Positions 2,698 to 19,372 of a stretch of 42,745 nt of DNA are shown here, piece after piece. The notes below the pieces were generated by a model. The model saw nothing but the letters and a program-made list of their open reading frames with translations, made no database searches and was not told the origin of the DNA. A program made the position numbers and the translations under genes. The first letter of the stretch is position 1, and the number at the start of each line of letters is the position of its first letter. Source of the stretch: Bacteroidales bacterium (GTDB lineage: Bacteria; Bacteroidota; Bacteroidia; Bacteroidales; JAADGE01); contig JAOZLS010000001.1 in NCBI GenBank assembly GCA_029934705.1, forward strand, positions 1 through 42,745, written 5' to 3'.

Positions 2698-5166
2698 ATG
2701 AAAGCAATTTCGACAAGTGAAATAGCCACTATTATTAGAGCAAAACTCATAGGAGATAGCGATGCTATAATCGAAAATATTATTATAGATAGCAGAACTG
2801 TTATTTCCGATAAAAAAACTCTTTTTATAGCACTAAGAAGCGAAAGAAACAATGGACATAACTACATAAAAGAACTTTACAGCAAGGGTATTATAAACTT
2901 TTTAGTTAGTGAATTTCACGAAAGCTTTAATAATTACAAAAAAGCAAATTTTATTGTAACAGGAGATAGCTTGAATGCACTTCAGCAACTTGCAAAACAT
3001 TACAGAAATAATTTTAATAACGAAATTATTTCAATTACTGGAAGTAATGGTAAAACGGTAACAAAAGAATGGTTATATCAACTATTAAACTCAAAATACG
3101 ATATAGTCAGAAGCCCGAAAAGTTATAATTCGCAAATAGGAGTAGCATTATCATTAATGCTTTTGGAAAATAAATATAATTTAGCAATTATTGAAGCAGG
3201 AATATCAAAGCCCAATGAGATGGGTACTCTTCAAAAATTAATAGAACCGCATATAGGTATTTTTACAAATATTGGAAATGCTCATCAAAAAAACTTTAGT
3301 TCAATTGAACAAAAAATTACTGAAAAACTAAAATTATTTAAAAATTGTGATAGAATAATTTACTGTTCAGAGAATAAACAAGTTGATAAACTAATAAAAT
3401 CACAATTCTTAAACAAAGAAAAACTATTCACATGGTCAGAAGACAACCGCTCTGATTTACAGATAATTAAACTAATAAAAAGCGATACGAATACCCACAT
3501 AAACTCCCTGTACAATAACTCTGAGTACAATTTAAACATTCCATTTACAGATGATGCTTCAATTGAAAATGCAATTAATTGTTTATCCTATTTAATTGCT
3601 TCAAAAAAAATAAACAACGACATTCTTAAATCGTTCAGTAAACTCTCACCTATTAAAATGCGATTAGAATTAAAAGAAGGTATAAATAATTGCACTTTAA
3701 TTAATGATTACTACAACTCGGATTTAAGTTCGTTAAAAATTGCACTTGATTTTTTAAGCACTCAAAAACAGCACAAAAACAAAACAATAATTTTAACCGA
3801 TATTTTTCAAAGTGGGTTAAAGAAAGATGAACTTTACAAAAAAATTTCAGGAATAATAAATCAGGCAGGTATAAATAAAATAATAGGCATAGGGAAAAAC
3901 ATAAAAAGTAAAAGGGCTTATTTTGACAAAATAACGCAAAAGCTTTTTTTTGATAATAGTGAAAGTTTTATAAAAAGTGCAGCTATAAGTAATTTCAAAA
4001 ACGAAACAATTCTTATAAAAGGCTCAAGAAAATTTGCTCTTGAAAAAATATCTGAAAAATTAATAAAGAAAAGACACCGAACAATTTTAGAAATAAACTT
4101 ATCTGCAATAACAAACAATCTAAATTACTACAAATCAAAACTTTCATTTAAAACCAAAATAATGGTTATGGTTAAGGCATTTTCGTATGGTAGTGGGAGC
4201 TACGAGATAGCAAATCTTTTACAAGAGCAAAAAGTTGATTATTTAGGTGTTGCATTTACCGACGAAGGCGTTAAACTAAGAGAGGCTGGTATTTCGCTTC
4301 CTATAATTGTAATGAACCCTGAACCAAATAGTTTCATAAACATTATTGATTATAAACTAGAACCTGAAATATATAATTTCAACATATTGCATGCCTTTGC
4401 AAAATCAGTGAGTTCTTTATCAGGACAAACAATAAACATTCATATAAAGATTGATACAGGAATGAAACGTTTAGGGTTTTGCGACTTTGAAATCCCAGAT
4501 TTAATTAAAATATTAAAAGAATATAAGCAACTAAGGATAAAGTCGATTTTTTCGCATTTAGCAGGAACAGACGAAGACATACATAATGATTTTACAAATT
4601 CTCAAATAGCAAAATTTGAGGAATTAAGCAACAAAATAAGCGATGAGTTTAATTATAAAATATCACGACATATTCTTAATTCATCGGGGATAGAGCGGTT
4701 CTCTAATGCAGAATACGACATGGTTAGGCTTGGCATTGGCTTGTATGGTTTTAGTCCAAATAATTATAACGAACTGCAAAATGTAAGTACTTTAAAAAGT
4801 ACGATATTACAAATAAAGAATGTTAAAAAAGGAGAATCAATTGGTTATAGCAGAAATTTTATTGCAGAAGAAAATATGAAAATAGCTATAATACCTATAG
4901 GTTATGCCGATGGTTTTAGCAGAAAACTAAGTAATGGGATTGGTAAAGTATTAATTAAAACCAAATTAGCTCCAGTAGTTGGAAATATTTGTATGGACAT
5001 GAGCATGATTGATGTAACAAATATTAATGTAAAAGAGGGAGATAATGTAACTATTTTTGGAAATAAAAACCCTGCATCTGAGATAGCACAAACTCTCGAC
5101 ACAATTTCTTATGAAATTATTACGGGTATTTCTGAAAGAGTAAAAAGAGTGTACTATAAGGAATAA
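2698..5166 (+). CDS. Bifunctional MurF-like Mur ligase / alanine racemase fusion
   Basis: The N-terminal half has the Mur ligase P-loop ITGSNGKTVTKEW. From about nt 4070 onward it is an alanine racemase, with the PLP-lysine context VMVKAFSYGSG (Lys codon 4174-4176) and the C-terminal ICMDMSMIDVT motif. 822 aa. Confidence 0.9.
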   Translation: MKAISTSEIATIIRAKLIGDSDAIIENIIIDSRTVISDKKTLFIALRSERNNGHNYIKELYSKGIINFLVSEFHESFNNYKKANFIVTGDSLNALQQLAKHYRNNFNNEIISITGSNGKTVTKEWLYQLLNSKYDIVRSPKSYNSQIGVALSLMLLENKYNLAIIEAGISKPNEMGTLQKLIEPHIGIFTNIGNAHQKNFSSIEQKITEKLKLFKNCDRIIYCSENKQVDKLIKSQFLNKEKLFTWSEDNRSDLQIIKLIKSDTNTHINSLYNNSEYNLNIPFTDDASIENAINCLSYLIASKKINNDILKSFSKLSPIKMRLELKEGINNCTLINDYYNSDLSSLKIALDFLSTQKQHKNKTIILTDIFQSGLKKDELYKKISGIINQAGINKIIGIGKNIKSKRAYFDKITQKLFFDNSESFIKSAAISNFKNETILIKGSRKFALEKISEKLIKKRHRTILEINLSAITNNLNYYKSKLSFKTKIMVMVKAFSYGSGSYEIANLLQEQKVDYLGVAFTDEGVKLREAGISLPIIVMNPEPNSFINIIDYKLEPEIYNFNILHAFAKSVSSLSGQTINIHIKIDTGMKRLGFCDFEIPDLIKILKEYKQLRIKSIFSHLAGTDEDIHNDFTNSQIAKFEELSNKISDEFNYKISRHILNSSGIERFSNAEYDMVRLGIGLYGFSPNNYNELQNVSTLKSTILQIKNVKKGESIGYSRNFIAEENMKIAIIPIGYADGFSRKLSNGIGKVLIKTKLAPVVGNICMDMSMIDVTNINVKEGDNVTIFGNKNPASEIAQTLDTISYEIITGISERVKRVYYKE

Positions 5167-11796: not shown

Positions 11797-12885
11797 TTAT
11801 TTTTTATTTTTTTGTAATACTCTATTTATCATTTCTACTCGTTTTTTTAATTCTGCTGTTGTTGGAAAAAATTGTTTTAACTCTTCTGGTAGCTGCTTTG
11901 TCAAACTGTATGTTGCAATCCCTATTGGCTTGTTTATATCTTGCAGGGCAAATTCAACGGTTGTTCTACTTTTACTTTTACAAATAATAATTCCTATACT
12001 CGGTTTTTCGTGTTTTTTCTTAATTGTTTTATTAAGAAGTGATAAATAGAAATTCATTTTACCTGCATATTCTGGTATAAACTCTGTTACTTTTAATTCT
12101 ATAGCTACTAGTGCTTGTAATTCCCTGTGAAATAGCAATAAATCTATTTTATAGTCTTTATCATTTAAGTTTACAACAAATTGATTACCCACAAAGGTAA
12201 AATCCCCTCCCATTTCAATTAAAAACTTACGGATATTTCTTAAAATAGCTTGTTCTAACTGATATTCAGAATGTTCATTACTTAATTCCAAAAAATCAAA
12301 AGTGTAATCATCTTTTAATGATAACATAGCATTGCTTTGTTCCTCTATATGTATTGTTTCACTAAAATTATTTTGATTAATTATTGTTTTTTGAAATGTT
12401 TTATTTTCTATTTGATGGATTAAAACATTTTTTGTCCATCCATTATTATGAGCTTGTAATATATAAAAAAAACGCTCGTTTACATCTTTGCATTTTTCAA
12501 TTATTATATAATTATGTGTCCAAGCAATAAATGTAAGAACCTTAGGCATAACGTCTTTATTTGAATTTTTCAATTCTCCCACTATTGGTGGGAGAATTGT
12601 ATCTTGTGTGTATGCCAAATAAAATGCACGCATACGCCAAAGATTTGTTGCAGAAAGTCCTTTTGTCCCTTCAAATTCTTTTTGCAAATCTTTAGCAAGT
12701 AGTTCAACTACTGATTTACCCCACGAATATTGTTGCTGTTTACTTACAATTATTTTTCCTAAATCCCAATAAAGTAACAGTTGCTGTGTATTTACAGCAT
12801 TTATAGCTACCGATTGTCCCAACCTTACTCGTTCACTTATCGTTTTTATTAATTGCTTATATTCATTTGTTTTTTCGACTTTCAT
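11797..12885 (-). CDS. PD-(D/E)XK nuclease family protein, YhcG / DUF1016-like
   Basis: The N-terminal region (LLLYWDLGKIIVSKQQQYSWGKSVVELLAKDLQKEF...LWRMRAFYLAY) is typical of DUF1016. The C-terminal nuclease core is DLLLFHRELQALVAIELKV (D...E-x-K). Confidence 0.8.
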   Translation of the reverse strand: MKVEKTNEYKQLIKTISERVRLGQSVAINAVNTQQLLLYWDLGKIIVSKQQQYSWGKSVVELLAKDLQKEFEGTKGLSATNLWRMRAFYLAYTQDTILPPIVGELKNSNKDVMPKVLTFIAWTHNYIIIEKCKDVNERFFYILQAHNNGWTKNVLIHQIENKTFQKTIINQNNFSETIHIEEQSNAMLSLKDDYTFDFLELSNEHSEYQLEQAILRNIRKFLIEMGGDFTFVGNQFVVNLNDKDYKIDLLLFHRELQALVAIELKVTEFIPEYAGKMNFYLSLLNKTIKKKHEKPSIGIIICKSKSRTTVEFALQDINKPIGIATYSLTKQLPEELKQFFPTTAELKKRVEMINRVLQKNKK

Positions 12886-13046: not shown

Positions 13047-14777
13047 CTATTTCTTATAATCCTTAATAACTTTAACTATTTTATTATTAGAGTATATAAC
13101 TTTATAAACAACCTCCCCTGCTCTATCATATCGCGTTAATTTACCTTCTCTTGCTCCATATTTATAATTACTTTCTTCGGCAATAGTTCCATAATCGTTC
13201 CATATTTTCAATTTCCCATGGCGTGTACCTCTCATAAAAGTTTCTTCTCTAAGCTTTTGTCCTATTCTATTATATACTAACCACTTGCCATCTTTTATTC
13301 CTGAAATATAATTTCCTGAAATATTTACAGTCCCATCCTTATGATATGTTTCGTATTTTAAATCATACCGCCCTTTACTATACGATACTTCTTGTTGTTT
13401 AATTCCTGTTTCAAAATAATAAACTGCTTTACCTTCTTTTATGTTATTAATATAAGATGTTTCATATTTTGGTTTTCCGCTTTTGTAAAAACCAAGCCAT
13501 TTACCATTCATTTTGCCTTCTACAAACTCTCCTTTCATTTCTGTTTGCCCATTTAAGTACCACGATTCCCAAATACCACTCTCTTTCCCTTTCTTATAAA
13601 CTCCTTTATAATAGACATTTCCATTTTCATAGTATATAATCCACTCTCCTTCTTTCAAACCATTTTCAAAATTCCCTTTTTTCCATACTTTCCCGTTAGG
13701 ATACCAATATGTCCACTCGCCTGTCATTTTACCATTCAAATAATTTCCTTCATTTCCTTTTGAAATGACTTCTTTATTATTAAATGTATCAACTTGCCAG
13801 TAAGTCCATTGCCCACTCATAACATCCTTATCAAAGTTTCCAAGAATATCATTTTCGCCATTTAATCTATACCATTTTGCTTTACCATGCTTTAAATCGT
13901 CTTTATAATTTATCAAAGTAAGCAAAACTCCTTTTTCTGAATAAATTTTATGCGTTTTTTGTCGTAAATCTAACGAATAACTACCAACTCGTTTAATATT
14001 ACCATTCGCAAACCAAAATTTCCACTCTCCCTCTTTTTTTCCATTTAAAACATTGCCCTTCATTTCTTTATGCCCATTTTCATAAAAAGAAACATTTTCT
14101 CCTTTTTCTAAATTTTCTATTTTTAAATCCTGCCCACTTTTATATTTATAAATCCATGTGCCCTTCTTTTCGCCTTTAATATAATTTCCTACCGAATAAA
14201 GCTCACCTGAATTATAATAAGTTTTCCATAGTGAGTCTTGAAGCTCATTTTTATATTTTCCTATTGCTAGCAAATTCTTGTTTTCTGAAAACTCTTTATA
14301 AAGTCCATTACCAGCATTAATTATAGTATCTCCTTTTGCCGAAAAGAAATATTGCAAGTGCTTATTCCCTTTTTCATAATTCTCTATAAATTTTAGTTTA
14401 TTATTTAGATAGAATTCATTCCAAACACTGTCTTTAACACCATTTTTATACTGACCTGTAATTTTCACAGAGCCATCTCTAAACCATTCAGTATATTCTC
14501 CATACTGCTTATTATATTTTATATGTCCCTCATTTTTTTTATTTCCGTTAGAATAAAAATAAGTAACAATCCCTCTTACTTTACCTTGATAATACTCAGT
14601 TTCTCTATAAAGTTTACCCTCTTTATTCCAAAATTTCCAGAGTCCATGCTCTAAACCTCCATCCATTATGCCCTCCTGCTTTTTATTTTTATTTTCCCAA
14701 TAAAAAGTTTTTACTTCTTGTGCATTTAACACAATTTGACTAGAAACAAGCAATATTAAAACAACTAATGATTTCAT
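13047..14777 (-). CDS. Secreted MORN-variant repeat protein (family often auto-annotated as YwqK-like)
   Basis: Signal peptide MKSLVVLILLVSSQIVLNA. About 19 units of G-x-W-x-x-[WY]-[YF]-x-N-G are recognisable by eye (GEWKFWFANG, GEWTYWYPNG, GEWIIYYENG and others). Confidence 0.8.
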   Translation of the reverse strand: MKSLVVLILLVSSQIVLNAQEVKTFYWENKNKKQEGIMDGGLEHGLWKFWNKEGKLYRETEYYQGKVRGIVTYFYSNGNKKNEGHIKYNKQYGEYTEWFRDGSVKITGQYKNGVKDSVWNEFYLNNKLKFIENYEKGNKHLQYFFSAKGDTIINAGNGLYKEFSENKNLLAIGKYKNELQDSLWKTYYNSGELYSVGNYIKGEKKGTWIYKYKSGQDLKIENLEKGENVSFYENGHKEMKGNVLNGKKEGEWKFWFANGNIKRVGSYSLDLRQKTHKIYSEKGVLLTLINYKDDLKHGKAKWYRLNGENDILGNFDKDVMSGQWTYWQVDTFNNKEVISKGNEGNYLNGKMTGEWTYWYPNGKVWKKGNFENGLKEGEWIIYYENGNVYYKGVYKKGKESGIWESWYLNGQTEMKGEFVEGKMNGKWLGFYKSGKPKYETSYINNIKEGKAVYYFETGIKQQEVSYSKGRYDLKYETYHKDGTVNISGNYISGIKDGKWLVYNRIGQKLREETFMRGTRHGKLKIWNDYGTIAEESNYKYGAREGKLTRYDRAGEVVYKVIYSNNKIVKVIKDYKK

Positions 14778-14959
14778 TTATTTATTTTTTAATTTATTTT
14801 TAGATAAAAATGGCAATACTTACATCCACATAGCTTAATACATGAATGCTTTAATTTACAATCCACAAATTTAAGCAAAATTACATAAAATTAAAACGGA
14901 ACAATAATTGTATTATTAAAAAAAAATAAAGAAATTGCGTATTTATTTCAAAAATTAAT

Positions 14960-14967
14960 TATTTTTG
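14960..14967 (+). promoter_or_regulatory. -7 box TAttTTTG for the mini-protein/exosortase operon
   Basis: Exact TAnnTTTG match ending 10 nt upstream of ATG 14978. A second in-frame ATG lies at 14990. Confidence 0.45.
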
Positions 14968-14977
14968 CATCTTATCA

Positions 14978-15184
14978 ATGATATTAACCATGGGAAAATT
15001 TACATTTATTTTAATATTAATAACATCATTTATTTTTATTCCGTTATTTATTACAACGGCATTAGGGCAACCACCACCACCGCCACCACAGGATATTCCT
15101 ATTGACGGGGGGCTTAGTTTGCTTATTGCAGCTGGTATTGCTTTTGGTGCAAAAAAAATACATAGCGCTCAAAAAGAAAAATAA
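14978..15184 (+). CDS. Mini-protein with signal peptide, poly-Pro stub and PEP-CTERM-like sorting tail (P-I-D-G-G, TM helix, KK); putative exosortase substrate
   Basis: MGKFTFILILITSFIFIPLFITTALG | QPPPPPPQD-IPIDGG-LSLLIAAGIAFGA-KKIHSAQKEK. It has its own -7 box and lies 26 nt upstream of the exosortase gene on the same strand. The GC-rich Pro codons stand out from the AT-rich background. Confidence 0.6.
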   Translation: MILTMGKFTFILILITSFIFIPLFITTALGQPPPPPPQDIPIDGGLSLLIAAGIAFGAKKIHSAQKEK

Positions 15185-15210
15185 TCTTTTTCCTTTATTA
15201 GGATAATTAC

Positions 15211-15792
15211 ATGATAAATTTTCTAAAAAAAATATTAGACGAGGTCAAAATTAAATATTGGCTTCGTTTTATTGTAAATGCAATTTTGTTATTTATTACA
15301 TTTATTGTATTCTACTTTATACTTCGGGAAATTGAATATGTAGATGTATTATACGTCGATGGACTCAATTTGTTTGCAAAGCTTCTTTTATTTTTATCAG
15401 AACAATTCACCGAATTATTTGGCTACGAAGTTGTTACTTATGGTAAAACCATTAGAATAATTGATGATTTTAGAGCTTCAGGAATTCACCTTGATCGTGG
15501 GTGCATGGGTAGAAATGTACTTATTGGTTATGCAGGTCTTATACTTGCAACCCCTGGCATGTTCTACAAAAAACTCTGGTATATTCCTATGGGAATGACT
15601 ATTTTAACCTTCATTAATGTACTACGAATTTCAGGTTTAGCAATAACAGCATACTGTTGTCCACAATATAGCGATGTAAATCATTACTTTATTTTTAAAA
15701 CATTTGCTTGGGCAGCGATATTTATTCTTTGGACTATTTGGTTTAATAAATTTGTTTTAAAAGCTGGCTTAAACGCTAAAAAGAAAGACTAA
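15211..15792 (+). CDS. xrtF: Exosortase-family integral membrane protein, XrtF-like
   Basis: 193 aa and polytopic. The exosortase signature contexts are HLDRGCMGRN (Cys98, nt 15502-15504), FINVLRISG (Arg139) and VNHYF (His158). The C-terminal ILWTIWFNKF matches what I recall from flavobacterial XrtF sequences. Confidence 0.7.
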   Translation: MINFLKKILDEVKIKYWLRFIVNAILLFITFIVFYFILREIEYVDVLYVDGLNLFAKLLLFLSEQFTELFGYEVVTYGKTIRIIDDFRASGIHLDRGCMGRNVLIGYAGLILATPGMFYKKLWYIPMGMTILTFINVLRISGLAITAYCCPQYSDVNHYFIFKTFAWAAIFILWTIWFNKFVLKAGLNAKKKD

Positions 15793-16573
15793 CATTATAT
15801 CCTCCATGTTTCCTCACATTAAACACTCTATCATTATCAAAAATTAAATACTGACCTTTTATACCTATTAATATACCCGAGAATTCATTTTCCTTATCAA
15901 AATTAACTGTTTTTACTTTTTCAGGAAATGTAGATACCGGATATTTAATCTTATAAAGCTCGTCTTCCTTAACAAAATACTCAATATACTTTGGATTTAT
16001 TAATTCTCCTGCTTCCTTTTTTTCATTTAAAATATCAATTCCTAAACTTAACTGATTACTAAGCATCTTATTAATATTAGTTTTATCTGAAAAATATTGT
16101 TTTAAATCGACCTCTATAACTCCTGCTAAATGTCTATTTGGTGTTTTTGCTATTATTACTGTCTCGGTAGCCCCTTGATCAATCCAGCGTGTTGGTACTT
16201 GTGTCGAACGTGTTACTCCAACTTTTAATCCACCCGTAAAAGCCAAATAAACAACATGCTCTGTCAAACAATTTTCTTCAGACCATTTCATATCACGAGC
16301 TTTTCCTAAATGAGCTTCGCAAAGTTCGGGTCGCAAAATACACTCAGCCGTTTCCGGCGATGTAGAAAAACAATTATAACAATTTCCTTGAAAAAAAGAT
16401 TTTCTTGTTTTAGCTCCACACTTTAAACAGTAGATATTACCAAGCCATTTCAGTTTAATCTCTTTTCCTATCAAATTATTAACAATAATATTACTGTCCC
16501 CTATTGGCAATTTATACTCTACAACATCCAATAAATTAGTCTGCATTTTTGATATTACTCCTATGTATTCCAT
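15776..16573 (-). CDS. DUF2797-like zinc-ribbon protein
   Basis: Cys clusters CLKCGAKT...GNCYNCF...ECILRPELCEAH, then LKVGVTRSTQVPTRWIDQGA. The 3' end overlaps the xrtF 3' end by 17 nt in convergent orientation. Confidence 0.65.
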   Translation of the reverse strand: MEYIGVISKMQTNLLDVVEYKLPIGDSNIIVNNLIGKEIKLKWLGNIYCLKCGAKTRKSFFQGNCYNCFSTSPETAECILRPELCEAHLGKARDMKWSEENCLTEHVVYLAFTGGLKVGVTRSTQVPTRWIDQGATETVIIAKTPNRHLAGVIEVDLKQYFSDKTNINKMLSNQLSLGIDILNEKKEAGELINPKYIEYFVKEDELYKIKYPVSTFPEKVKTVNFDKENEFSGILIGIKGQYLIFDNDRVFNVRKHGGYNVSLSF

Positions 16574-16708
16574 CTTTTTGTTTTATTTCAAAAATAAATA
16601 TTTTTTTCATATATAAAAACACAGCTGATTATAAGCTAATTACAAAACATTATTTCGCTATTCTAAAAATAACACTACTTTGTTATACATACTACCATAT
16701 TTTATATA

Positions 16709-16716
16709 TATCTTTG
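16709..16716 (+). promoter_or_regulatory. -7 box TAtcTTTG
   Basis: Exact TAnnTTTG match ending 21 nt upstream of ATG 16738. Confidence 0.45.
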
Positions 16717-16737
16717 TAAAAACAAATACTTATAACG

Positions 16738-17274
16738 ATGGAAAAAATTAGCACTATAAAAATTGACGGTAAAAGTTTTAAACTAACAGAGTCGGCGTAC
16801 AACTTACTAAAGGACTACGATCATTTTATACGAAAGAACATATCGGATCCTAGTAAGATACTTGATATTGAGGTACAGATGGCAGTTATTTTACAAACTG
16901 GCGAAAATATGGAAAGCCTTATAGTAGAAATAAAAAATATTGAAGAAGCAATAAATTTAATTGAAATAAATGAAAATGTTGGTTTTAAACCTTCTTCAAA
17001 ATCTAAAAAATCTACAAAAAGGCGGAGTAAGATAAGAAAGCCAAGACCTAAAAAAACAGAAAAATATTACAGAGATAGAGAAAATAGCGTTTTAGGTGGA
17101 GTATGTTCTGGTATTTCAGCATATTTAGGAATTGATGCAGTAATAATAAGAGTAATTTTTATTGTAGCCTTTGCTTTTTTCCGTCCAATAATAGTTTTAT
17201 ACATTCTATTATGGGTATTTTTCCCTGCTAGTCCTAAAAACGGAGGAACAATAATAAACAAAAAGGGAAACTAA
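16738..17274 (+). CDS. PspC domain-containing membrane protein (short form)
   Basis: YRDRENSVLGGVCSGISAYLGIDAVIIRVIFIVAF is the PspC domain. It is preceded by a highly basic linker and a soluble N-terminal module. Confidence 0.85.
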   Translation: MEKISTIKIDGKSFKLTESAYNLLKDYDHFIRKNISDPSKILDIEVQMAVILQTGENMESLIVEIKNIEEAINLIEINENVGFKPSSKSKKSTKRRSKIRKPRPKKTEKYYRDRENSVLGGVCSGISAYLGIDAVIIRVIFIVAFAFFRPIIVLYILLWVFFPASPKNGGTIINKKGN

Positions 17275-17342
17275 TAACTTCTCCTTACAAAAGCATATAA
17301 ATTATATAAAATAGATTTCTACAATACGAAAACACTAAAGAT

Positions 17343-17711
17343 ATGGATATAGCAAACGCCACAGCACAAATGCGAAAAGGAATTCTTGAATTTTGTATTT
17401 TATCGATACTATCAAGAAACGATGCTTATGCTTCAGACTTAATAAAAGAGCTTAAAAGTGTAGATTTAATAATTGTTGAAGGAACATTATACCCACTTCT
17501 AACAAGACAAAAAAACTATGGTTTACTAAGTTACAGGTGGGAAGAATCATTAAAAGGACCACCTAGAAAATATTATAGACTTACAGACGAAGGTTCAATG
17601 TTCTTGGAAAAATTGGATTTATCGTGGGAAAAGCTTACCGAATCGGTAAACGAGATAAGAAATGCAAGTAGGGACGCCATAAACACGGACGATTTGAATG
17701 ATACAGTTTAA
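17343..17711 (+). CDS. PadR-family transcriptional regulator
   Basis: GILEFCILSILSRNDAYASDLIKEL...GTLYPLLTRQKNYGLLSYRWEES...PPRKYYRLTDEG. Confidence 0.9.
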   Translation: MDIANATAQMRKGILEFCILSILSRNDAYASDLIKELKSVDLIIVEGTLYPLLTRQKNYGLLSYRWEESLKGPPRKYYRLTDEGSMFLEKLDLSWEKLTESVNEIRNASRDAINTDDLNDTV

Positions 17712-17764
17712 TAAAATATCAAAATCAGAAAGAAGAAAACTTTTAAATAGTTAAAAAAAGACAA

Positions 17765-19372
17765 ATGAAAAAAACAGTTAAAATACACATAAGTGGCTAT
17801 ATATTCACCATAGAAGAAGATGCTTACGACAAACTGGAAGACTGGCTAAAAAAAATATCAACTCAATTTTCCGACGAAGAAGGTGGACAGGAAATTATTG
17901 AAGACATTGAATTTAGGGTTGCAGAACTCCTTAATGACAGTGCTATTGGCGAAGAAAAAATTATTACTCTCAACGAAATAAACAAGGTAATAACAACAAT
18001 GGGAATGCCCGAAGATTTTGCAGAAGAAACAAGGGAAACAACACAAACAAGCCAAGCAACTGAGCAAAAGTCTAAATTCGACAAAAAAATTAAAAAAAGG
18101 CTATATAGAGACTACGACAATAGCTTACTAGGTGGAGTTTGTGGTGGACTTGGAGCATACTTTTCTATAGATCCTGTAATTATAAGAGTATTATTCGTTC
18201 TTGCATTCTTTTTTGGAGGTTTTGGTCCGTTAGTATATATAATATTATGGATTATTACTCCTGCTGCAAAAACTTCATCGCAAAAGCTTGAGATGAAAGG
18301 TGAAAGGGTTAGCGTATCAAATATTGAAAGAACAATTAAAGAAGAATTTGAAAACGTAAAAAAAAACATTATAAATCAAAGTAAATCTGAAAATTACAGG
18401 CATATTTCAAATACTGTACAAAATATTTTAAACTTAATTTTCGCCATAATAAAGGTAGGTTTTAAAGTATTACTATACTTTATTGCAGGAGTATTTATTT
18501 TTACAGGCTTTGTAGTTATTATATCGCTTTTTGCATTCTTATTTTTTCAATCGGCTCCTGATTTTATATCTGGAAACCAAAACATATCCGATATCAACCT
18601 TGCTTTAAATATCGTACCAATGCAAATGTCTTCATTTTTAGCACAATTTGGTCTTATTTTACTTATAGGAATACCTTTTGCATCTATTTTATACATTGGA
18701 ATTAAAATGATTTTTAAATTTAAAACGAATAATAAAATAATAGGACTTACTGCAACAGGGCTTTGGGTAGTTGGAATAATACTATCGCTAGGAACAGGAT
18801 TAAGCATTGCAAGCAACTATAAAGCAGACAGTAAGCAAATTAAAACATTTATTTTGAAAGAAACTCAATCCGACACTTTATATTTAGATATTTTTAATGA
18901 AACAGACGACGACTATATAAGTTCTGAGATAAATGCAGGAAACTTCAGTATTTACAATTCAAAAAATAAGGTCAAGTTATTTGGCGAACCTAATTTCAAT
19001 ATAAAAAAGAGTGATGATAACAATATTAAACTAAAAATTAATTATTACTCCCGAGGGAAAACAAAAAAGCAGTCTTCAAGAAACTTAGGAAACATAGATT
19101 ACAACTGGATTCAAAAAGACTCATTAATACAATTTTCGCCATATTTTACACTTAAAGCTCCTCAAAAAATATTTGGTCAAAAAATAAAAATGACTCTTTA
19201 TTTACCCGAAGGTAAGACAGTTTACATAAAAGACGGGATGTCTGATATTATTTATGATATAGAAAATGTTCAAAATATGTGGGACGGGAATATGACAGAT
19301 AAGTTCTGGATTATGACAGAGGAAGGGTTAAGTGTAACAAGCGAGGAAAACGAGGAAGGCGAGGGGATTTAA
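17765..19372 (+). CDS. PspC domain-containing membrane protein (long form) with an extracytoplasmic C-terminal domain
   Basis: LYRDYDNSLLGGVCGGLGAYFSIDPVIIRVLFVLAFF (PspC domain). There are further TM helices and a C-terminal soluble domain of about 190 aa. The N-terminal module resembles that of the 16738 gene. Confidence 0.85.
   Translation: MKKTVKIHISGYIFTIEEDAYDKLEDWLKKISTQFSDEEGGQEIIEDIEFRVAELLNDSAIGEEKIITLNEINKVITTMGMPEDFAEETRETTQTSQATEQKSKFDKKIKKRLYRDYDNSLLGGVCGGLGAYFSIDPVIIRVLFVLAFFFGGFGPLVYIILWIITPAAKTSSQKLEMKGERVSVSNIERTIKEEFENVKKNIINQSKSENYRHISNTVQNILNLIFAIIKVGFKVLLYFIAGVFIFTGFVVIISLFAFLFFQSAPDFISGNQNISDINLALNIVPMQMSSFLAQFGLILLIGIPFASILYIGIKMIFKFKTNNKIIGLTATGLWVVGIILSLGTGLSIASNYKADSKQIKTFILKETQSDTLYLDIFNETDDDYISSEINAGNFSIYNSKNKVKLFGEPNFNIKKSDDNNIKLKINYYSRGKTKKQSSRNLGNIDYNWIQKDSLIQFSPYFTLKAPQKIFGQKIKMTLYLPEGKTVYIKDGMSDIIYDIENVQNMWDGNMTDKFWIMTEEGLSVTSEENEEGEGI

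Follow-up and report, generated by a model that had tools for sequence, protein, structure and literature searches.

A putative substrate–enzyme pair of the PID-CTERM/exosortase X type in a Bacteroidales bacterium

In the accepted exosortase model, the enzyme cuts its substrate near a C-terminal sorting motif, the inner membrane retains the helix of the sorting signal, and an unidentified compound is conjugated to the newly formed C terminus (PMC7468200). For XrtF, a small exosortase of Bacteroidota, the substrates are stated to be unknown, and deletion of xrtF affects surface colonisation and biofilm (PMC10936215). A sorting signal, its enzyme and a partner protein have already been curated as a trio, since models exist for all three: NF046080 (PID_CTERM), NF046081 (exosortase X, XrtX) and NF046082 (XrtX-associated membrane protein), with PF28310 (PID_CTERM) in Pfam. 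Here we analyse two neighbouring open reading frames (ORFs), ORF1 and ORF2, which encode a mini-protein with a PID-CTERM tail and an exosortase. They lie in a 42.7-kb stretch with 29% G+C from a Bacteroidales bacterium (contig JAOZLS010000001.1, positions 1 to 42,745), called the window below, to which all genome-level statements on the host are limited.

On balance, we think it likely that ORF1 and ORF2 form a two-gene substrate–enzyme pair of the PID-CTERM/exosortase X type, with ORF2 drawn from a divergent branch that has no adjacent membrane partner. What we observe are the ORFs themselves, the family models that they match, conservation of the catalytic residues, purifying selection on the peptide and the recurrent adjacency of such genes.

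The mini-protein and the exosortase

ORF1 and ORF2 share a strand, in a divergent intergenic region downstream of a 576-residue MORN_2-repeat gene, and are laid out as follows.

14960-14967, forward strand: −7-type box TATTTTTG, which fits the Bacteroidota consensus TAnnTTTG; possible promoter of ORF1 and ORF2
14990-15184, forward strand: ORF1, PID-CTERM mini-protein of 64 residues
15185-15210, forward strand: ORF1–ORF2 spacer of 26 nucleotides
15211-15792, forward strand: ORF2, XrtX-like exosortase of 193 residues

The original prediction, made from the letters of this stretch, had described two same-strand ORFs 26 nucleotides apart. Both are present as described, and no terminator-like site occurs in 14700-16000, hence none between them; from this arrangement, the two genes are probably co-transcribed. 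Comparably tight spacing between a mini gene and an exosortase gene is found at loci L011, L014, L020, L031-L037, L041, L049, L051 and L053. The −7 box placed ahead of the pair is also present, but the window contains 81 copies of TAnnTTTG, and shuffled sequences would lead one to expect 83. As the pattern is at chance frequency, the box has no statistical weight by itself and serves as a positional hint only, and we rejected it as promoter evidence.

ORF1 had been read as a 68-residue protein made only of sorting signals. That layout stands, but the protein is probably shorter: the first ATG gives 68 residues (14978-15184), and alignment with homologues speaks for a start at the second ATG (14990), for a length of 64 residues (MGKF...). 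Its parts, all on the forward strand, are these.

14990-15067, forward strand: signal peptide MGKFTFILILITSFIFIPLFITTALG, by direct reading
15068, forward strand: first position of the predicted mature N terminus, Gln27
15068-15094, forward strand: stub QPPPPPPQD
15095-15112, forward strand: IPIDGG motif
15113-15151, forward strand: hydrophobic transmembrane (TM) helix LSLLIAAGIAFGA
15152-15181, forward strand: basic tail KKIHSAQKEK, followed by the stop codon at 15182-15184

The proposal that ORF1 ends in an exosortase-type sorting tail is borne out by NF046080, which matches it at 43.2 bits (cut-off 26; E 2.4e-11; positions 2-22 of the 25 in the model). No other NCBIfam family, including PEP-CTERM TIGR02595, matched ORF1 at E≤10. 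A local Pfam search with ORF1 gave no match; homologues of ORF1 in the large protein collection are all tagged PF28310, among them the near-identical P0070 (99% identity). NF046080 and PF28310 thus already cover this motif.

A full-length search with ORF1 returned 123 proteins of 47-98 residues. Across an alignment of 45 homologues, QPPPPPPQDIPIDGGL is nearly invariant, and the signal peptide and cytoplasmic tail vary. The identical 16-residue QPPPPPPQDIPIDGGL is encoded by 16 distinct DNA versions that differ only by synonymous changes (mean 9, maximum 15, per 48 nucleotides), which argues that ORF1 is coding and under strong purifying selection.

Small size is a property of the whole family. 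A profile built on the tail only (first row padded to 40 residues) matched 5450 proteins at E≤10, and the best 120 are all 44-70 residues long. Each of the 200 retrieved PID-CTERM relatives (P0070-P0189 and P0339-P0418) is 44-98 residues long, with a median of 66, and no large PID-CTERM protein was found in the 68 loci examined. As all relatives are small, the mini form is the rule for the PID_CTERM family and not an oddity of this locus.

Of the 182 minis that are complete, 170 carry an [AGSC]|Gln signal-peptidase site, and the predicted mature peptide, counted from Gln to P-x-D, spans 10-26 residues (median 13). Its composition is 45% Pro and 15% Asp, and Lys and Arg are almost absent. In 179 of the 182, exactly 15 residues separate GG from the first Lys or Arg, as they do in ORF1; for a sorting signal, this is an unusually rigid helix length. 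Stub types vary by lineage: about 70% are polyproline (polyPro), and others include QPVFDDDVND, QGGGFPV.. and QPDPGGDPD... Under the Bacteroidetes Q-rule, an exposed N-terminal Gln is cyclised to pyroglutamate (PMC5837995, PMC10653852), and the Gln at +1 of ORF1 is consistent with it.

By sequence, ORF2 is an exosortase-family enzyme. It passes the generic exosortase signature, and its best specific model is exosortase X.

NF046081 (exosortase X): 86.3 bits, cut-off 170
TIGR04128 (XrtF): 54.4 bits, cut-off 90
NF046083 (XrtY): 38.8 bits, cut-off 160
TIGR04178 (generic exosortase signature): 40 bits, cut-off 23, passed

The local PF09721 score is 18.9 bits (cut-off 25.7), and many homologues have a precomputed PF09721 match. 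An alignment of 26 homologues agrees with the conserved residues named in the original prediction.

15502-15504 (TGC), forward strand: Cys98 of ORF2, invariant in the 26 homologues; catalytic candidate
15625-15627 (CGA), forward strand: Arg139 of ORF2, invariant in the 26 homologues; catalytic candidate
15682-15684 (CAT), forward strand: His158 of ORF2, kept in at least 90% of the 26 homologues; catalytic candidate

The same three residues are kept in two threshold-passing XrtX sequences that served as controls (L041, 195.5 bits; L062, 173.7 bits), to which ORF2 is 24-33% identical over the catalytic half.

The label "XrtF-like" was not the most apt, as exosortase X outscores XrtF and both scores are sub-threshold; we rejected membership of either family by curated threshold (54.4 against 90 and 86.3 against 170). 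The NF046081 match nonetheless spans nearly all of the model (positions 5-162 of 168), and NF046080 and NF046081 carry consecutive accession numbers. XrtX is the best model for all 26 aligned clade members, with a best E-value of 5.6e-31. As a sequence that just passes, at 173.7 bits, has an E-value of about 3e-51, none of the 26 reaches the XrtX cut-off.

Besides the window protein, 68 relatives of ORF2 with 46-73% identity make up a single tight clade. In a representative library of 1.84 billion proteins, this clade is one 50% cluster (266 bits); the next related clusters score 120-179 bits, and 1914 proteins match at E≤0.001. Ten neighbouring clusters also have XrtX as best model, all sub-threshold at 72-138 bits, which places ORF2 in a broad radiation of XrtX-like enzymes, with curated XrtX making up only a narrow section of it. 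Judged by these matches, the clade of ORF2 is large, XrtX-like and sub-threshold; none of its loci that we examined has a partner gene beside the enzyme. No solved structure was related to ORF2 by sequence, and no fold matched at E≤0.001. The structural analysis thus adds only a confident AlphaFold2 model (predicted local distance difference test, pLDDT, 85.2; predicted template modelling score, pTM, 0.77), mainly helical with one three-stranded sheet.

Recurrence of the pairing and its surroundings

The immediate neighbours of ORF2 are ORF1 upstream and a convergent gene for a DUF2797 protein downstream. Neither an XrtX-associated membrane partner nor another multi-TM partner gene adjoins ORF2, in agreement with the original prediction. 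A second PID-type tail is found nowhere else in the 42.7-kb window, and the 20 window proteins scanned, comprising neighbours and the largest proteins, carry no type IX secretion system (T9SS) sorting domain. ORF2 is also outside any exopolysaccharide (EPS) cluster: a glycosyltransferase gene and a polysaccharide-synthesis gene lie 6-9 kb off, with other genes intervening.

At 22 genome loci of the ORF2 clade, the gene order is MORN_2 (reverse), exosortase (forward), DUF2797 (reverse), PspC, PadR and PspC/toast-rack. A mini gene lies between MORN_2 and the exosortase at three of the 22 (L011, L014 and L020), which with the window makes 4 of 23. At most other clade loci the gap between MORN_2 and the exosortase is 44-151 nucleotides, with no room for a mini gene, and in the few longer gaps neither a profile search nor tblastn turned up a mini ORF or what might be left of one. 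Adjacency of mini and exosortase is thus facultative and a minority state within the ORF2 clade, and to call ORF1 a dedicated adjacent substrate, as the original prediction did, was too strong.

The order mini-then-exosortase does recur elsewhere. In 11 of 24 metagenome loci anchored on a mini gene, the next gene downstream is a same-strand exosortase gene, and these enzymes represent several XrtX-like clades. Six of seven downstream exosortases tested are XrtX-like at 113-138 bits, and the seventh, at L041, passes the XrtX cut-off. Both L041 and L062 have a threshold-passing XrtX in a same-strand cluster with a PID_CTERM mini gene, and weak NF046082 matches occur only beside these two enzymes (at L041, in the next gene). 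Enzyme and substrate also covary: exosortases with the context DRGC(M/L)GRN go together with minis that have QPPP(P) at the start of the stub, and threshold-passing XrtX pairs with other, non-QPPP(P) stubs. The recurrent adjacency makes a functional link between minis and XrtX-like enzymes well supported.

A second conserved site of polyPro minis has the order AMMECR1 (reverse), mini, a 195-200-residue membrane protein and flotillin/Band_7, with no exosortase nearby. The membrane protein is NfeD-like in appearance and has no family match. The loci are as follows.

L042, 3870-7069: AMMECR1/flotillin mini locus
L043, 5484-8676: AMMECR1/flotillin mini locus
L055, 3214-5847: AMMECR1/flotillin mini locus
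L059, 3230-6398: AMMECR1/flotillin mini locus

Several features of the surroundings were apparent. The neighbourhood of the ORF2 clade (window 13047-19372; L001-L022) is strongly conserved and stands beside an envelope-stress-type module. The divergently encoded 576-residue MORN_2-repeat protein is secreted, and the distal PspC protein has a LiaF-like TM region and a toast-rack domain. Eight metagenome-assembled genomes (MAGs) with Bacteroidales-type synteny and this exosortase are labelled "Chlorobiota" or "Chlorobi" (L005, L008, L009, L010, L012, L015, L020 and L022), labels that look inconsistent with a gene content common to Bacteroidales- or Draconibacterium-labelled MAGs. Between the M16 peptidase and MORN_2 genes, the window holds a YhcG/DUF1016 PDDEXK-nuclease gene (11797-12885, reverse strand); this position is empty in all 22 related loci, which suggests a recent insertion. 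At 2698-5166 on the forward strand, an 822-residue ORF encodes the middle and C-terminal domains of a Mur ligase together with both the N- and the C-terminal domain of alanine racemase, which is thus complete; from these domains, it appears to be a fused cell-wall precursor enzyme.

Proposed processing of ORF1 and competing explanations

By analogy with the accepted exosortase model (PMC7468200), we infer that ORF1 is exported and cleaved twice, where the exosortase cuts and whether the product is transferred. Sec would export ORF1, and signal peptidase I would cut after ..TALG to free Gln27, with formation of pyroglutamate expected in the Bacteroidota manner. The remaining single-pass protein would expose a 13-residue stub, Q-PPPPPP-QD-IPID, in the periplasm, span the inner membrane with its 13-residue helix and keep its KK tail in the cytoplasm. 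ORF2, a small polytopic Cys/Arg/His exosortase, would then recognise P-I-D-G-G at the membrane surface and cut at PID/GG, with an acyl-enzyme forming on Cys98. From there the Pro-rich peptide could pass to water, and be released, or to an acceptor, for instance a glycan or the head group of a lipid. Most likely, then, ORF2 would cleave ORF1 at PID/GG to yield a peptide of about 13 residues, with (pyro)Glu-PPPPPPQDIPID as the predicted product. A Pro-rich product had been foreseen, with a length of about 10 residues.

Several points weigh against pairing the two genes in this way. ORF2 falls far under the XrtX cut-off (86.3 against 170), like all 26 clade members, and 19 of the 22 ORF2-clade genomes have no mini gene beside the enzyme. 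PolyPro minis also occur at unrelated sites, such as that between AMMECR1 and a 195-residue protein followed by flotillin. Conservation of the stub goes far beyond that of ordinary cargo, which could mean that the uncleaved protein, or the peptide by itself, has a binding function of its own. In the searchable literature, "PID-CTERM" appears in no paper, "XrtX" and "exosortase X" gave irrelevant matches only, and no experiment on PID-CTERM or XrtX was found.

Some of these points would fit an ORF1 that is not consumed at all and acts as a stable small single-pass subunit, regulator or pseudo-substrate of the exosortase or another complex, with PIDGG as a docking site. A near-invariant periplasmic stub and a fixed spacing from GG to Lys/Arg are features that one meets more typically in binding interfaces than in cargo. 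Many genomes carry a polyPro mini just upstream of the 195-residue membrane protein and flotillin/Band_7 genes, and many ORF2-clade genomes have no adjacent mini. However, the tail has exactly the tripartite design (motif, helix and basic cluster) of sorting signals whose cleavage is predicted for this enzyme family and, for archaeosortase with PGF-CTERM, reportedly demonstrated. It also passes a curated sorting-domain model, and the Cys/Arg/His set of ORF2 is intact. We regard a stable subunit as unlikely.

Another explanation draws on minis of other types. We sampled 11 non-polyPro mini genes on long contigs and scored neighbouring proteins with TIGR04183, the model for the T9SS type A sorting domain (cut-off 23 bits). 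Nine of the 11 lie 3-115 nucleotides downstream, on the same strand, of a gene for a protein of 870-2700 residues whose C terminus passes.

L027, 4589-10213: cargo, TIGR04183 42.4 bits
L030, 4339-18858: first cargo, TIGR04183 27.7 bits
L030, 4339-18858: second cargo, TIGR04183 27.4 bits
L038, 730-3677: cargo, TIGR04183 38.6 bits
L063, 1-6213: cargo, TIGR04183 41.3 bits
L064, 2530-6210: cargo, TIGR04183 27.5 bits
L065, 1-5213: cargo, TIGR04183 38.3 bits
L066, 2118-5213: cargo, TIGR04183 37.1 bits
L067, 2382-5207: cargo, TIGR04183 26.2 bits

The remaining two sampled loci gave a sub-threshold score (L062, 19.5 bits) and no TIGR04183 match (L068). This frequency of cargo–mini adjacency is far above chance expectation. 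At L030, the genes alternate in the order cargo, mini, cargo, mini. Same-strand clusters of four genes, encoding an exosortase, a membrane partner of 141-164 residues, a T9SS-type cargo of about 950-1200 residues and a mini, occur at L062 (1206-6228) and L066 (876-5213). The L062 exosortase passes XrtX at 173.7 bits and that of L066 scores 120.8 bits; the L062 partner has weak NF046082 and TIGR04127 matches. The L066 cluster is followed by a glycosyltransferase/asparagine-synthase cluster.

These arrangements would suit a mini-derived peptide that links or anchors T9SS cargo. Its C terminus would be fixed by the exosortase to a membrane or glycan carrier, after which either the peptide or the Gly-Gly remnant would take part in the T9SS step that attaches the neighbouring giant cargo. 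Besides the nine cargo–mini neighbours and the two four-gene clusters (the cargo of L062 being sub-threshold), two published findings speak for it. In Flavobacterium johnsoniae, deletions of xrtF and its partner give the same phenotype pattern as deletions of porU and porZ (PMC10936215), and the PorU sortase joins cargo to the amine of a linking sugar that bears an amino acid (PMC7468200). The cargo adjacency and, independently, these porU-like phenotypes suggest that the small exosortases of Bacteroidota are linked with surface attachment by the T9SS. The link was not seen for polyPro minis of the window type, none of which was found adjoining T9SS cargo, or within the window, where the 20 scanned proteins lack the sorting domain. 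Moreover, cyclisation of the Gln at +1 is expected and would block the N-terminal amine (PMC10653852), the Gly-Gly remnant would stay in the inner membrane while PorU acts at the outer membrane, and adjacency indicates a link but no mechanism. As an account of ORF1, the anchor is rather improbable. We place the same low confidence in a broader version, in which PID-CTERM minis are building blocks instead of cargo, from which XrtX-type enzymes make short, carrier-linked Pro/Asp-rich peptides for surface attachment of T9SS cargo, and the polyPro pair of the window, which has no adjoining partner gene, is a streamlined, cargo-independent form of this machinery for making anchors. If true, it would explain both the minis that trail giant T9SS cargo genes and the XrtF-system mutants that phenocopy porU and porZ.

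It is also conceivable, if quite improbable, that ORF2 really acts on other, larger proteins whose genes lie elsewhere in the genome, and that its mini neighbour is of minor importance or there by accident. The visible portion of the genome is 42.7 kb only, the adjacency in the ORF2 clade is just 4 of 23, and most exosortase systems reportedly have many substrates (Haft et al. 2012). Against this stand the uniformly small size of the relatives (44-70 residues for the best 120 of 5450 tail matches, 44-98 for the 200 retrieved), the lack of any large PID-CTERM protein in 68 loci and the recurrence of the mini–exosortase order across clades.

Finally, although ORF1 is short and lies in a 425-nucleotide divergent intergenic region of AT-rich DNA behind a −7 box that carries no statistical weight, a chance ORF is hardly credible and was rejected, being refuted by hundreds of homologues, an above-cut-off match to a curated model and codon variation that is synonymous only.

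Significance and relation to known systems

The locus is a divergent pair of the PID-CTERM/XrtX kind, an already catalogued type and not a new system. Its value is limited by the fact that curated models for the motif, the type of enzyme and a partner protein already exist; the original prediction had itself conceded that a published model would cost it its novelty, and on that clause the novelty is lost. What this analysis adds is a large sub-threshold XrtX-like clade, an almost invariant substrate peptide and, in other Bacteroidota, a tie between minis and T9SS cargo. In the literature, the small exosortases of Bacteroidota still count as enzymes with unknown substrates (PMC10936215). With 193 and 64 residues and a predicted 13-residue product, ORF2 and ORF1 come close to the simplest possible enzyme–substrate pair, which makes the cleavage site, the acceptor and the catalytic residues directly testable.

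The closest relatives are the curated PID-CTERM/XrtX systems. ORF1 passes NF046080, ORF2 has NF046081 as its best model, the Cys/Arg/His residues are common to both enzymes, and the mini precedes the exosortase as it does at L041, where the XrtX passes its cut-off. The differences are equally clear: ORF2 scores 86.3 bits against a cut-off of 170, with 24-33% identity to threshold-passing XrtX over the catalytic half, and its active-site context is DRGCMGRN, whereas that of the L041 XrtX is GAPCDGM. ORF2 has no adjoining membrane-partner gene and no T9SS cargo neighbour, and the invariant QPPPPPPQD stub of ORF1 contrasts with variable Pro/Asp/Gly stubs.

XrtF (TIGR04128, with its partner TIGR04127; Fjoh_1448/1449 in F. 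johnsoniae) is likewise a small Bacteroidota exosortase of about 175-190 residues. It is the second-best model for ORF2 (54.4 bits) and has the catalytic core in common with it. Unlike XrtF, ORF2 scores below the cut-off of 90 and has no adjoining TIGR04127-type partner, and a candidate substrate can be identified beside it, whereas none has been described for XrtF.

Further away, PEP-CTERM proteins, the substrates of exosortase A (XrtA, EpsH), share with ORF1 a tail composed of a Pro/acidic motif, a TM helix and a basic cluster, and XrtA and ORF2 fall into one superfamily (TIGR04178 passed, PF09721 weak). However, XrtA has roughly 500 residues and 8 TM helices, compared with about 190 residues for ORF2. 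PEP-CTERM substrates are of normal size, no PEP-CTERM model matches ORF1 at E≤10, and ORF2 lies outside an EPS cluster.

Archaeosortase A with PGF-CTERM and rhombosortase with GlyGly-CTERM also use a C-terminal signal in which motif, helix and basic residues follow one another. For archaeosortase A, cleavage at PGF-CTERM and joining of the new C terminus to a lipid-type moiety are reportedly supported by experiment (Abdul Halim et al.). Rhombosortase provides an experimental precedent in which a membrane protease removes the GlyGly-CTERM signal and the new C terminus is joined to a lipid-type moiety (PMC7468200). Both systems differ from the locus described here in motif, host and enzyme subfamily, and their substrates are full-size proteins, compared with the predicted 13-residue peptide of ORF1.

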